In this document: positions 1 through 34,480 of the stretch, one piece after another
Layout: the number at the start of each line of letters is the position of its first letter
Numbering within the stretch: position 1 is the first letter of the stretch
From: Hydrolagus affinis
Taxonomy: Eukaryota
Direction: 5' to 3'
DNA: 64,000 nt
NCBI GenBank assembly: GCA_012026655.1
Contig: JAAILG010000202.1
Span: forward strand, 62,001 to 126,000
The notes under the pieces: generated by a model
The model's input: only the letters and a program-made list of their open reading frames with translations
What the model was told of the DNA's origin: nothing
Database searches by the model: none
Made by a program: the position numbers and the translations under genes

Positions 1-153
1 CTCCCTCCCTTCCAAAATAATTCAGATCAATATGGATTCATCCACAAAATATGTCCTGGAATGTGGGAAATACTGTAGTTTGAATATTATTTAGAGCTGG
101 GTGTGCTTGCCCACATTAAAATGTCCATTATACCATTTGAATTGAGGGATTTG

Positions 154-13285: not shown

Positions 13286-13413
13286 AAACACAAAATACTA
13301 CAGATGCTGGGAATCTGAAACAAAAACAAAGGTTGCTGGGGAAACTCAGCAGGTCAAGCAGCATGCATGGAGAAAGGAAAAAGAGTCAATGTTTCGGGTC
13401 TACAACCCTTCGT
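13286..13413 (-). mobile_element. Penelope-like terminal fragment (single arm, hammerhead core truncated)
   Basis: Near-identical to the left arm of 21951-22205; minus strand ACGAAGGGTTGTAGACCCGAAACATTGACTC lacks an intact CTGANGA. Confidence 0.8.
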
Positions 13414-13529
13414 ACAGTACTTCTACTTATCATTTTGGGGTTATTAAGGGGTATAACAACATGCTATAAGATTATGTAATTGAAGCTGTAACAAGGGTGG
13501 AAGTAAAGCTTTTGCCTCTAAATAATAAC

Positions 13530-18664: not shown

Positions 18665-19362
18665 TTGAACACCGGACCTCAGGAAAAATATATTGGCCCT
18701 CGAGGGTTGCAGTGAAGATTCACCAGAATGTTACCGGGCCTAAAAAGGGTTAAATTACAAGGAGAGGCTGGGTGAACTTGGATTATATTTCTTTGATTTT
18801 AGAAGCTTGAGGGTGATTTGATTGAAGTATTTAAGATGATAAAGGGATTCAATAGGGTGAGGGAATTCAAAACAAGGGGGTATTATCTTCAAATTAGAAC
18901 TAGGCTATTTAAGAGTGAAATCAGGAAGCATTTTTTTTACACACTCAAAGGATAATAGAAATCTATAATTCTCTCCCCCAAAAGGCCATGGATGTTGGAT
19001 CCATCCACACCTTCAAAAGTGAGGTAGGTTTTGGGTAGACAAAACACAAAATACTACAGATGCTGGGAATCTGAAACAAAAACAGAAGTTGCTGGGGAAA
19101 CTCGGCAGGTCAGGCATGGAGAAAGGAAAAAGAGTCAACGTTTTAAATGTTGACTCTTTTTCCTTTCTCCTTGGATGCTGCCTGACCTGCCGAGTTTCCC
19201 CAGCAACTTCTGTTTAGGTTTTTGATAGGTCAGGGTATTATGGGATATCGGGAGAAGGTAGAAAATGTGGATTGAAAGTTTTACTTGAGTAAAATTAAAT
19301 ACAATTAAAAAATTATATGGCAGAATAGGCTCGAAGGGTTGAATGCCTACTCGTGTTCCTGT
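18665..19362 (+). mobile_element. CR1 LINE 3' end interrupted by a Penelope-like insertion
   Basis: RFTRMLPGL..LNYKERLGELGL..RGDLIEVFKMIKG motif (frameshifted); tail GGCTCGAAGGGTTGAATGCCTACTCGTGTTCCT. Confidence 0.85.
19039..19215. mobile_element. Penelope-like inverted terminal element, hammerhead cores deleted
   Basis: Inverted arms meet at GAGTCAACGTTTTAAATGTTGACTC; same family as 21951-22205. Confidence 0.82.
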
Positions 19363-20401: not shown

Positions 20402-22049
20402 GGAGACCTGAAGTTACTGCTCCAGACCACAAAGCTATAACAAGGTTGCCTTGTAATTACAGTATTAAACTATTAAACGGTAGGATAATTATTATTGTTG
20501 CAGCAAGATTATTTCAGTCCCTTTTCTACTGTAAAATTTAATTATCTTTTGTGAGTGTATAGCCTGAAGCGGTGTGCTGAAATAAAAACAATTCTTCATT
20601 CAAATGAGAGGAACCTTCCTGACATGAGAAATCACGTAGAAGTTTAATATATAAATTGGTTTAACAGAACTGGGATTTAACAATAACTCAAAAGACATCT
20701 GGTAGTTTAATTCCACAATGAGCAGATCCCTTTCTATTGTCAAGTGTACAATCTGCAAATTCCACATATAGCAACAGGCTTGGGTAGAGTTATAGTTGGC
20801 AGCAAATTTGATTTAACCTTTATTTGCAAGATCCTGTGAGCGTGGCTCAACTGAGTTTAAGTTCTTATCCTTAAATTTATGGAGGGATTCTGTTGGAGCT
20901 GGGTCTTAAGGTTTAAAATATCAGTCTTCACATTTTGTTACTACCATGATTTGAATGTATTGGCTTATAGAAAGCTTTGAAGTAGTACATGTTTGCACCA
21001 GCCAGATCCAAAAACAACCCATGAGCTAAATGATTAATTTGTCTGGAGAATTGTTGGCCTTCTCTTTCTGAATAGTCGTGGGATCTTCACCATCATTTCA
21101 GTTGAACAGACAGACGGGATCTTGGATTAATGTCTCTAAGATAAATTATGTATCTCCAGCCCCCATCACCCCACATAATGCTCACCCTCCCCACCAGTAA
21201 AGGCAGGTGAGTATCAATTTTCAGGGAGGAAAAGAGAGGCTTACAGCCAATGTCCACTGCTCTGTCGAATCACTTTTGGCTTCAGTGTGATACTGACAGA
21301 GCTTGGACATACCCATGGGTTAGTATAACACCGTGGTTTTATTGGAATAGCTTTTTTTTTCAATAAACCCACTTTCCAGCTATCATTCTATCTTCTAATT
21401 GCAATTCATTCAGATCACATGATTTATTCAGCAATTTTTCAGCGAGAACAAAACCAAACAGATTCAGACACATGAACTTGTCCATAGGCATAACTAAGAG
21501 CCTTCTCTTTCTCAGATTCTCAGAGACTGTCACATATTGAGGCTTTAATTGAAGAGTCATCAATGCTCTGCATAAAATTGGCAATTCATCATATTTACCA
21601 AGTGAATTCCTGTAAATGAAATTTAATGGCAAAGGTGAGGACTGCTGTGTGCGAAGCATTATCCAGGGAGCGGGAGGCGGAAATCAGGGTTTGATGGTGA
21701 TTGGAAACAAATTTACTCTTACAGCCGAAACACTTACTGATCATGCAAAGGCAATACCTGACTCCGTGCATCCATTCACATATTGCAAACTTAAAACTGG
21801 TCCACTGTATTAATATATTAATATTAGTAATCCTTGCATTTCATATAGCACCTATCACATTATCACTGTTGGAGTTGGAGGAGAGGATAAGCGAGGTGTG
21901 AGAGGGTGGATGGAGGAGCTGGGTGGTAATGGAGAAGAGAAGCCTGGGAGCAAAACACAAAATACTACAGAGGCTGGGAATCTGAAACAAAAACAAAAGT
22001 TGCTGGGGAAACTCAGCAGGTCAGGCAGCATCCATGGAGAAAGGAAAAA

Positions 22050-22087
22050 GAGTCAACGTTTCGGGTCTACAACCCTTCATCAGAACT
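22050..22087 (-). ncRNA. Minimal type-I hammerhead ribozyme motif
   Basis: Minus strand AGTT-CTGATGA-A-GGGT-TGTAG-ACCC-GAAAC-GTT-GACT: core CUGAUGA/GAAA, stem II GGGU/ACCC, stem I AGUU/GACU, GUU cleavage triplet. Confidence 0.75.
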
Positions 22088-22103
22088 GATGAATTTCAGA
22101 TAA

Positions 22104-22141
22104 AGTTCTGACGAAGGGTTGTAGACCTGAAACGTTGACTC
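22104..22141 (+). ncRNA. Minimal type-I hammerhead ribozyme motif
   Basis: AGTT-CTGACGA-A-GGGT-TGTAG-ACCT-GAAAC-GTT-GACT; stem II keeps pairing through a G.U pair. Confidence 0.72.
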
Positions 22142-22314
22142 TTTTTCCGTTCTCCATGGATGCTGCCTGACCTGCTGAGTTTCCTCAGCAACTTTTGTTT
22201 TTGTTGTAAGAGAAGCCTGGGGTTGTTCTTGGCTTCCAAGATTACCTTGGAATGGAAGGAGGATTTAGTAGAGGCGAAGGTGGACAGGTAAGTTTTTATG
22301 TAGTACAGTCAGAT

Positions 22315-22468: not shown

Positions 22469-23706
22469 TATTATTGACATCCTGGTGTCCCACAGACTTG
22501 CTCCCTCCCTCACCTCATTCAAAATCAATCTGAAGACCTAACTCTCTAACCATGCTTTCGGTCACCTTTCCCATCTCCTACTTCCTCGGCTCCTCCCCCC
22601 AGCTCGGCTGCTAAACCAGGACTGTCAAACATCTTGGGACGTCCTCCTGATATGAAAGGTTCTGTACAAATGTAAATTTGTATTGTACTGTATTGAAAAT
22701 GAATCTGTATTATCCCTTGCTCATAATTCATTTCGATTGAACAGGGACTTGTTTTCAGCACACTGTGTTCCTTCCTGCAGTAAACATTGCATCCAGCACC
22801 CAGCACTTCATGATAATGTTTTATTCAAAGATTAAAATTAGCAGCTGGAAAATAAGGGAAGCAGAGCTTCCAACAGTGGCAGATGGTGCACAGATTACAG
22901 ATGGAAATTGCTAATTATCTTGTATCATGGATAGTGAGCAGTGTCTGTCAGTGGCTGATTAGTTAGCAGTTTAAGGCTATTCATAATGTATCACTGTCAC
23001 CTCCAATACATCTTCATTCTCTTGGCATAGGACATTATCATAAGCAGCTGGCATTCACTAATTTGTAAAATAACAATTTAGCGAAGCCATGTGTTTTCAG
23101 GACTTGGAGTGGACAAATTATAGGACTTTTATAGGCAACATGTTGAATTGATGGTGGACTTTTTTCTTCTTCACGGAACTGCTAGACCATCTTATTGTAA
23201 CGAGGTTGGCAGATGTAATTAGCAAGTCTTTAACTCGGGTATTTCCCAGAAACTGGTCCCGTAGCAGCAAAACCAAAGGTCCCAAGTTGAAATGCCCTTG
23301 AGAATTCACAAGATGGAAATTGGAAAGCACGAACGGTTGTGTGCTACGTTCACGTTTAATAATAATACTAATCCATGCATTTGATACGTGGTCAAGACAT
23401 CTCACATATGAAAGTAGTCAGCACTGAGAACTGAGAACTGAGAACTTCAATCCCGACATACTCTGTACCAACAATCATCTCCTGATATATGCCCAGTAAC
23501 CTGCAATATGTGTACAACTAGATTTCAAAGTAACTGGTCAGTAATGAACCTTGTGCAACCACAAACAAAATCAACTGTGAAACCCAACCAGTGTATCTTG
23601 AATGTGAGTTTTTGTACCCAACCCACAATTTTGCCCCATACTATCTATCATCTGAGCACTGCAGTTCAAACGATCCAAGCAGGTCAAGTCGGATTGAAGG
23701 CTGAAT

Positions 23707-23943
23707 CAAAAACAGAAGTTGTTGGGAAAACTCAGCAGGTCAGGCAGCATCTATGGAGAAAAGAAAAGTGAGTCAACGTTTCGGGTCCACGACCCTTCGT
23801 CAGTTCTGATCCAAAACGTTCACTCACTTTTCCTTTCTCCATAGATGCTGCCTGACCTGCAGTAGATGCTGCCTGACCTGCTGAGTTTTCCTTGCAACTC
23901 TGTTTGTGTTTCAGATTTCCAGCAACTGCAGTATTTTGTGTTT
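23707..23943. mobile_element. Penelope-like inverted terminal element with near-perfect 13-bp TSD
   Basis: Inverted arms; TTGAAGGCT(G/A)AAT at 23694-23706 and 23944-23956; internal 19-bp duplication at 23842-23881. Confidence 0.85.
23770..23803 (-). ncRNA. Minimal hammerhead ribozyme core
   Basis: Minus strand CTGACGA-A-GGGTC-GTG-GACCC-GAAAC-GTT-GACTC; the 5' strand of stem I is altered by rearrangement. Confidence 0.62.
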
Positions 23944-24944
23944 TTGAAGGCTAAATGTTGGCAGAAATCCTTTCCATCAAACTGTATATTGCAAACCCAT
24001 TTTGTTTTATTGTACAATATTATAAAATCAAATCCATCATTAACTGTAATATCATGTAATGCATTTCCTTTTAAGTAAATATGTTGTAAATTCAACAGAT
24101 TTTAGTGGACTTGTGACAGGATTCCATTATTGTTTGTTCAGGAAACAGCAGATGTATTATATTTAGTCAATGTAACGTATTACATTTTGCAAATTAATCA
24201 TAATCATCTGAAGTAACAGTGCCAGACTTAACTATCTCTGGCAATGAGAGTGCTTTAGTGACAGCTTTCCTTGATATTGACACAAACCTCTGCTGAACAT
24301 AGTGACAGATTAATGCAACTTTCATGCTTGGAACTATCGCTGTGTCTAGTGTGGCTCAGAGATATTTCCTGTAAGAAATCTCTTCTTGCTTTGCCTCCCA
24401 TATGATGTATTGCTACTCTATATAATCTGAGTTACCCAAGGTACTAATTCAAATGAGCAGCCAATTTCTGGAGAGTTAAAGGAAACCAAACTAAATTATG
24501 ATTGTGGCTGAGCTAGGAGATTGCCTTTCTGTTAGATTGTTCTATTGATGGTGTTTCAGAGTGAGTTACTCTACCCTTTTGAGATCAAGTGAGTTGGTAA
24601 CGACCCTGACAACCATAATGTGTTCATTCATCACATGTCACACGACTTGTGGAAAGTACAGTATATAGTTACAGTCACCTTGAATGCATCTACCAAGGTT
24701 AAATGATAATATCACTTATATTTGGTATAGCATCTTACACTTCATTCTCAAAACGTTTCACAGGATTTACTGTAATGAGTGGTGACTATGTGTTTTATGG
24801 GCAGAGTGTGTTCAATGTAATTAATGTTTGTCTATGTTCTTTACGCAGCTGGACAGCAACCAGGATTGAACACAATATCAAGACATCTCTCTACAGGGCT
24901 ATTGTTATTGATAGACTTGGGAGGCCTGATAAAATAATCTTATA

Positions 24945-32995: not shown

Positions 32996-33384
32996 CATGG
33001 ATTCAGATGTTATACCTAAAAAAGCACTGAGTTTCTTGTGCAAAATGTAATGTCCTGGAATGTGAGGTCAATAACATTGAAGCAAATTTGCTGTGGACAT
33101 ATTTACATTTATGTCACTCTGATTCCCAGGATTCTTCTTTCCCACACTATAGAAAAGTTCAAAGTACCTTTAAAAATCATTAGTTCAACATATGGTTTTG
33201 AGAGCCTGACACCACCCTCCAACCCCCATCCACCACACCCACCCCCCCAACCCCCCACCCAATAGTACTGCCCTATTTAAAAAAAACTTGCGAATGCCGT
33301 TGCTGTTCCCTTAACCTCGGTTGCTGAATTAAGATGTCTGAGATTTGCATTTATTTCACCCAATGCCACAAGGTATAAAATAAT

Positions 33385-34480
33385 GAGTTGGGTGTCATCC
33401 CCATACATGTGGAAATTTATCCCATGTCTGCGGATGACGTCACCGAGGGGGAGCATGTAGAGAGTGAAGAGGAGAAGACCAAGGACAATGAATGCCCTGA
33501 GGAATGCCGCACAAGATGGTGCGGGGGCTGGAGGAAAAGCTGTTGACGGACACAAAGTGGAGGCGGTGTGAATGATAGGACCTGAACCAGTCAAGGACAG
33601 AATCTTAAAGGTTGACGTGAGAGGAGAGGGGATGGAAGTGGATTGAGTCAAAAGCAGACCTCTCGACCTCTCTGCTGCTTTTGACACTGTGTCAAAAGCA
33701 GCAGAGAGGTCGAGAAAGTCGAGGAGGCAAAGGGAGCCCTTGTCACAGATGGACAGGATGTTATTTGTGACCTTGACCTGAGCAGTTTCTGTGCTGTGAA
33801 CAGCATAGAAACCCAATTGGAGGGGCTCATGGAGGGAGTGGGAGGAGAGGAAAGAGTGAAACTGGGAAGCAACGCTCTTTCAGGAATCTTGGAAAGAAAA
33901 GGAAGATTGGAGTTTGGAGATAATTGAACAGCAAAGATGCATCCAGGACATCTTTGGACGCATGATGTCCAGGGATGGTTTCTTCAAGATGGTGGTTATT
34001 GTGGGGTTTTTTGAGGGATTGGAAATGGTACTGGATGATCGGGAGAGATTGATGGTGTTGGAGAGTAGCGGAGTGAGGAAGTGGAGCTGGGAGGTAAGGA
34101 GAGAAGTGGGGATGGTGTCGAAAGCGAAGGTGGTGGGCTTCATGGAGGATATGGTGGTGATGACAGAGGAGGGGGAGGCATGTTTGAAGGTGTGGAAGGA
34201 GGAATGGGTAGGGGATGTGGGGGGACGAGATAGGGAAGGGGTGGCAGTTGGGAGGGCAGAGGCAGCTGAATGGATTCCCTCGATTTTGGACTCGAGGAAA
34301 TCCAATATCTCCTCACAGTGAGAGTTAGAGGAGAGACTTTGGCAATTTGGTGGAGACAAGTGTGATGTGGTATGTTTTGATGTGGTCCAGCCAGATATGC
34401 TGGTGGACCATTAGGCCAGATTTGAGGCAGGTGCGTTCGGCAGCCCGCATCTCCTTGAGGGAGCGGAGGTGGCTGGTGAA
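33385..34480 (-). mobile_element. L2 ORF2 fragment including RT domain (pseudogenised)
   Basis: HSTETA..KVTN, LDLSAAFDTV, LGLLLFTLYMLPLGDVIRRHGINFHMYGDDTQL, MKPTTFAFDTIPT, ILKKPSLD. Confidence 0.95.
33661..33715. repeat. Perfect 27-bp inverted repeat with 1-nt spacer inside L2 RT
   Basis: TCTCGACCTCTCTGCTGCTTTTGACAC-T-GTGTCAAAAGCAGCAGAGAGGTCGAGA. Confidence 0.97.

Follow-up and report, generated by a model that had tools for sequence, protein, structure and literature searches.

Two head-to-head Penelope-like 3' ends with a hammerhead motif on each strand: a truncated inverted insertion and its copies in the genome

Among endonuclease (EN)-bearing Penelope-like elements (PLEs), the combination of an inverted pseudo-LTR (pLTR), a tail on one side only and a target-site duplication (TSD) is known from Pen2a_Av and Pen2_Av (PMC3846280), and a scheme of it is given in PMC8557442. 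How pLTRs come to be arranged in tandem or inverted, and how a tail arises on one side only, is stated as an open question in the available parts of PMC8557442 and PMC11167929. The promoters of PLEs lie in the pLTR, according to the accessible text of PMC2377424. On opposite strands, dual hammerhead motifs separated by 100-700 bp are described in the accessible part of PMC4209133, which links dispersed motifs with truncated PLEs and in which one minimal hammerhead by itself showed no activity in vitro. In the in vitro system of an Anolis PLE both target strands were extended, initiation occurred at two sites flanking the tail, and cleavage was not needed (PMC11167929, available part). Retrozymes, as characterised in the accessible part of a preprint (bioRxiv 10.64898/2026.07.22.740005), are tandems in head-to-tail order that comprise two or more hammerhead units in succession. 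No description of twin priming for Penelope elements, or of the family treated here, was found in the literature searched, outside of which lay subscription journals, Repbase and supplements.

The window, i.e., the whole stretch of 64,000 nucleotides that was analysed, contains a fold-back insertion composed of the features listed below. U coordinates follow the minus strand from 22087 (U1) to 21951 (U137), with the hammerhead at U1-37, the predicted cut at U33/34 and the tail at U103-137.

21935..21948, plus strand: left copy of the TSD, 14 bp, exact repeat (100%)
21951..21985, minus strand: 35-nt tail, U103-137, on the tailed arm only (comparison with copies)
21986..22087, minus strand: tailed pLTR arm, U1-102 (inverted-arm match and comparison with copies)
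22051..22087, minus strand: putative minimal type-I hammerhead motif read from the sequence, core intact, G10.1-C11.1, predicted cut 22055/22054
22088..22103, no strand: junction filler, 16 nt, single-copy in the genome (genome pattern search)
22104..22205, plus strand: tail-less pLTR arm, U1-102 (inverted-arm match and comparison with copies)
22104..22140, plus strand: putative minimal type-I hammerhead motif, likewise read, core intact, G10.1-U11.1, predicted cut 22136/22137
22208..22221, plus strand: right copy of the TSD, 14 bp, exact repeat

The direct repeat AAGAGAAGCCTGGG (21935-21948 and 22208-22221) is 100% identical in its two copies, and a 2-nt filler separates it at each end from the element proper, which occupies 21951-22205 (255 bp). 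The inverted arms (21986-22087 and 22104-22205), each of 102 nt, are 96% complementary and spaced by 16 nt; they differ at U9 and U25, both of which are CpG sites. Only 220 bp belong to the fold-back part, and the 35-nt tail (21951-21985) has no pairing partner. The fold-back of ~255 bp, its exact 14-bp TSD and the two hammerhead motifs on opposite strands are all present as the initial annotation wrote, and its inverted terminal repeat of Penelope type is borne out by the 102-bp arms. As a side statistic, an exact flanking repeat of at least 8 nt was present at 49 of 67 fold-backs and at 0 of 67 shifted controls, so the TSD of the fold-backs is not a matter of chance. Almost certainly the unit is a truncated inverted PLE insertion, in which the 3' end of a PLE, with its hammerhead, is present twice in head-to-head order. 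The best explanation of the locus as a whole, to which we give a probability of about 0.8, is a head-to-head arrangement of PLE 3' ends between a 14-bp TSD, likely made in one insertion event, with a ribozyme that is predicted to be inert. The locus itself is ordinary and its layout has already been published; only the copy statistics add anything, as a hint of the way in which such mirrored halves may arise.

The parent of the arms was recognised in longer copies, which carry upstream of the hammerhead a pyrimidine-rich 3' UTR, then a GIY-YIG domain and then the reverse transcriptase (RT). Pfam identified the RT (RVT_1, E=3.6e-7) and gave nothing at E≤0.01 for the endonuclease half, which was assigned by Atlas to GIY-YIG clusters at 0.96. 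Searching the genome with the RT gave at least 158 matches, obtained from the best 148 of 733 candidates. In partial-tandem copies the tail continues into the 5' region of the ORF; copy L148, arranged as U61-135, ORF and U1-137 with a unit of ~3.07 kb, shows this run-on ~45 nt before the ATG, and L170 has the same 5' junction. The minus arm of the unit, taken with its tail, shares 97.8% identity with the 3' terminus of the RT+EN-bearing copy L146. Judged by sequence, each arm is the 3' end of this ~3.07-kb RT+GIY-YIG PLE, and an RT+GIY-YIG element with shared termini, for which the initial annotation had proposed to look, was thereby found. Continuity of RT and GIY-YIG in the ORF, partial tandems, a one-sided tail of 30-40 bp and a TSD, the marks of an EN+ PLE, are all present; every parent copy that was translated was broken, with no intact ORF among them. 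In these translations a linker of the CX2-5CxxC type, CQRRRCNTC, was read before the endonuclease, together with C-C-H-H residues. A CX2-5CxxC linker and a CCHH motif define the Neptune and Nematis clades in the available part of PMC8557442, and the CQRRRCNTC linker points to one of these two for the parent. Just upstream of U1, positions 3460-3501 of L146 hold a pyrimidine tract followed by CAG, which resembles a 3' splice acceptor and stands exactly where the 5' ends of the copies pile up. The CAG is overlapped by CCCAGT, which we take to be initiator-like.

The hammerhead pattern had 2,275 exact matches genome-wide and its reversed control had 0, which shows that the motif is not a chance resemblance. 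The Rfam scan (E≤10) returned 13 hits, to microRNA-precursor and weak unrelated models, with no hammerhead model and none at the gathering score, so it is the motif, and not a covariance model, on which the ribozyme call is based. By inspection, both copies have the conserved core, an extra base after A9, the palindromic 15.2-16.2 and a helix I of 4-5 bp; the conserved G10.1-C11.1 pair is present in the minus copy and is G-U in the plus copy. Compared with the form described in the available part of PMC4209133, they were correctly annotated as Penelope-type minimal type-I hammerheads. In computed folding, each strand of the unit formed one hairpin (-199.7 and -192.4 kcal/mol), and forcing stem II in the full unit cost 24-27 kcal/mol. 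The predicted pair probabilities of stems I and II were ~0 in full and nascent transcripts of both strands, because the antisense arm would be transcribed first on either strand and would sequester the hammerhead. When an arm was folded alone, stem II formed in the minus arm (0.9) and hardly in the plus arm (0.06). Both ribozyme motifs of the unit are predicted to be inert in place, locked in the hairpin, and the proposal that the unit puts a self-cleaving site into read-through transcripts of either strand is not supported by this modelling, in which the antisense arm emerges first. No strand of the unit holds two sense hammerhead motifs. In one study, minimal hammerheads reportedly cleaved as dimers. 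The decay of the core was followed in 88 arms chosen without use of the hammerhead pattern: changes were present at 28 of 792 non-CpG core positions (3.5%) versus 153 of 3,080 (5.0%) in the flanks, G8 and G12, both in CpGs, were changed at 40 of 176, and the core was intact in 38 of the 88 arms. Conservation of the core relative to its flanks, by which the initial annotation would have judged its proposal, did not emerge, the core being not significantly better kept (p=0.09).

Other related pieces lie in the window. A second fold-back of the unit's family (19040-19221) has both arms starting near U26 and neither hammerhead whole, and a fold-back of an older subfamily (23701-23944, with a GGGTC-GTG-GACCC stem II) has an internal duplication and one arm in which the core's 5' half is missing. 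A single tailed arm (13286-13422, minus strand) begins at ~U3 and has G12 changed. On the minus strand, 33280-33879 is an open frame of 200 aa containing LDLSAAFDTV, presumably a LINE reverse-transcriptase motif. Beyond the window, sequencing runs of more distant relatives contain a related repeat whose stem II loop differs and whose cut triplet is predicted to be GUC.

The copy statistics rest on samples of different kinds. In the whole-unit search the best 40 of 2,629 candidates were scored and 30 loci were fetched. The hammerhead-anchored sample comprises 88 loci from the first 100 listed of the 2,275 matches, in contig order, and the 3'-anchored sample comprises 100 arms from the first 100 places, again in contig order, among the 3,003 genomic matches of a 24-nt 3'-end pattern. 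Two sets of near-identical loci, each repeated within a single contig, L106/L107 (C283) and L131/L132 (C4288), are recent duplications or assembly artefacts and were counted once in the arm statistics. The 3' ends of the 100 arms formed two classes, U100-111 (48 arms) and U129-137 (52 arms). Among 329 arms we found 97 close head-to-head pairs, 96 of them between a tailed and a tail-less arm and 1 between a tailed and an intermediate arm; when the 30 loci picked for likeness were left out, a tailed arm was paired with a tail-less one in 67/67 fold-backs. The same pairing was seen in the RT-bearing long copies L150, L152, L158, L163 and L173, and L161 has two tailed arms, one of which is only 77% identical and perhaps represents a separate older insertion. 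Partner arms diverged by 6.1% compared to 9.4% between copies (73 pairs), agreed at 243 of 265 subfamily-internal sites in the young subfamily (0.92; shuffled 0.61, maximum 0.71) and had 17 of 173 rare variants in common (shuffled mean 2.3). Reaching past U-8 was also correlated between partner arms (p=7e-5). Later homogenisation or conversion of the arms is unlikely, because at the CpG sites U9, U25 and U30 partner arms agreed no better than expected.

The 5' ends of the arms were concentrated at the hammerhead edge: 45 of the 65 arms reaching U5 ended in U-5..5 (0.063 per nt), versus 0.003 per nt in U21-37, a ~20-fold difference, and it is this second interval that holds the predicted cut site. 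Loose ends at U2 were also listed for contigs of another organism. We take the pile-up as the probable transcription start. That it reflects instead a stall of the RT or an RNA-processing site, with the splice-acceptor-like CAG after a pyrimidine tract at U0-U2, is a less likely alternative: the parent is pyrimidine-rich upstream of U1 and ends in CAG there, the 3' end of the D. virilis Penelope intron coincides with helix I's 5' end (PMC4209133, available part), and no clear signal of a cap-derived extra G was found at the arm 5' ends, where the U-1..U5 boundary is smeared. Against a stall or processing site, 31 of 47 short single-arm copies begin within 7 nt of the TSD, and no shared upstream exon was found in the short copies. 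RNA reads of a related species on parent stretches likewise gave no splice joint; that they gave no pile of starts or ends, in a library that may miss 5' ends, counts against a transcription start, as do the missing cap signal and the smeared boundary. In polyA reads of a related species the ORF and UTR bins were strand-biased, sense-like if the first mate reads opposite to the RNA, and the pLTR bins had many times that depth, on both strands; this has no bearing on the unit's own locus.

Double priming on one RNA is the mechanism that we favour for the fold-backs, because of the one-tail pairing, the alleles shared by partner arms and the pile-up of 5' ends away from the cut site. A protein of the element would nick both target strands ~14 nt apart, and each nick would prime a cDNA on one and the same RNA, with initiation at the tail's far end (U137) for one cDNA and near the arm (U~104), at the tail's other end, for the second. 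Synthesis of both would continue up to the RNA's 5' terminus, placed at the hammerhead's 5' edge and probably a transcription start, after which a short patch would link the two cDNAs at their centre; the arm ends would not be set by ribozyme cleavage. To this scheme, in which one RNA is primed twice and copied to run-off at the transcript start, we give about even odds, and it is a tentative proposal, somewhat short of even, that Penelope inverted repeats are one uncleaved RNA copied twice from two tail-flanking sites with both cDNAs running off at the start. The main rival to double priming is self-priming, in which a hairpin on the antisense template or on the nascent cDNA makes the inverted arm and a staggered cut leaves one tail; self-priming with a staggered endonuclease cut has been proposed for rotifer Penelope elements (PMC3846280, in the part available). 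A single template, a single tail in each unit and fillers taken from sequence close by are expected under self-priming too, and the fact that a hairpin intermediate with a staggered cut would likewise leave one tail per unit counts against our scheme. A simple snap-back from a tailed first strand, however, predicts that the tail-less arm is the shorter one, whereas central truncation left the tailed arm shorter in 36 pairs and the tail-less arm in 16 (p=0.008). Furthermore, both end sites are used by arms that do not belong to a close pair (77 tailed, 54 tail-less), and the junctions are fillers and not clean palindromic loops. We consider self-priming unlikely.

The copies were also compared for signs of a lineage of their own. 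The 30 fetched whole-unit matches measured 240-264 bp and had TSD-like flanks, but this uniform length was set aside as selection bias since the loci had been chosen for likeness. Both contig-order samples were heterogeneous. The 5' ends of the 100 3'-anchored arms extended from U66 to beyond U-1100, and fold-backs made up 48 of 81 insertions in this sample, with both hammerheads whole in 13 of those 48. The lengths of fold-backs formed a ladder from 103 to 592 bp; of the uniform length and the random truncations that the initial annotation set against each other, the truncations were found and the uniform length was not. Of the junctions in the 30 best whole-unit matches, 29 were parsed, with 25-49 nt between anchors and no identical pair; in three of the 29 (L003, L013 and L018) a near-identical filler resembles U7-13, which is a recurrent templated patch or marks a small fold-back lineage. 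The unit's central junction had 1 genomic match with up to 2 mismatches allowed, and tailed and tail-less arms showed similar allele frequencies at all 14 polymorphic sites. The non-identical junctions, the single-copy junction of the unit and these similar frequencies indicate that the fold-back is built anew at each insertion. No allele private to short copies was found after correction (53 long vs 114 short young copies, 123 tests; smallest p 0.013), and no run of whole same-strand units was present among the 88 hammerhead-anchored loci. The short single-arm RNAs could be copied in trans.

It is very improbable that the ~250-bp fold-back forms a non-autonomous, retrozyme-like family in its own right, which multiplies as a unit and whose transcripts of either strand cleave themselves: although the many 240-264-bp copies with TSDs, selected for likeness as they were, and the three near-identical junctions would fit it, the junction of the unit is single-copy, the size ladder is continuous, there are no arm-specific or short-specific alleles, the hammerheads are buried in a predicted hairpin, two sense hammerheads never occur on one strand, and the core is not significantly better kept (3.5% vs 5.0%, p=0.09; G8/G12 changed at 40/176). 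The retrozyme family reading is largely refuted; the heterogeneous ends trace to one RT+GIY-YIG element, and it is the fallback of the initial annotation, a heavily truncated PLE insertion, that stands.

The family is useful as a natural data set on the forming of inverted pLTRs, and from the one-tail rule, the shared arm alleles and the 5' pile-up follow sharp predictions for the in vitro PLE assay that already exists. If double priming is true, stumps of this kind would represent, in the genome, the 'strong-stop' product of Penelope retrotransposition, which would explain the strict one-tail rule, and hammerhead cleavage would not define the template. The unit also carries a warning for ribozyme surveys, as such opposite-strand hammerhead pairs should, by prediction, stay silent in read-through transcripts and would instead contribute ~100-bp double-stranded hairpins to the RNAs of the host.

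The comparison with known systems is drawn from the available parts of the papers cited. Like Pen2a_Av and Pen2_Av, the copies have a head-to-head inverted pLTR, a tail of 30-40 bp at one end, a TSD and full-length copies in partial tandem; unlike in those elements, both arms of the unit have been reduced to the final 102-137 bp, and no ORF separates them. The TSD is 14 bp here and 8-10 bp in the rotifer Pen2 cases, and thousands of copies are present here. The motifs resemble the minimal hammerheads of PMC4209133 in the core, the extra base between 9 and 10.1, the palindromic 15.2-16.2 and a 4-bp helix I, but they stand 16 nt apart and G10.1-U11.1 is found in the plus copy; helix II measures 4-5 bp here versus 7-8 in Schistosoma (PMC4209133). 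Membership of the non-LTR retrozymes was considered and rejected on the head-to-head arms and on the lack of a lineage copied as a unit (single-copy junction, no private alleles). The unit resembles them in being non-coding and pLTR-related with a type-I hammerhead, whereas its head-to-head order and the predicted hairpin of its RNA set it apart. As for PAc (Poseidon_Ac, PMC11167929), its two tail-flanking initiation sites match our two classes of 3' ends; inverted products do not come up in the available part of that work. Differently from PAc, the parent here has the CX2-5CxxC linker, which Penelope/Poseidon lack according to the accessible text, and its ATG lies ~45 nt past the tail, while that of PAc is inside the hammerhead.
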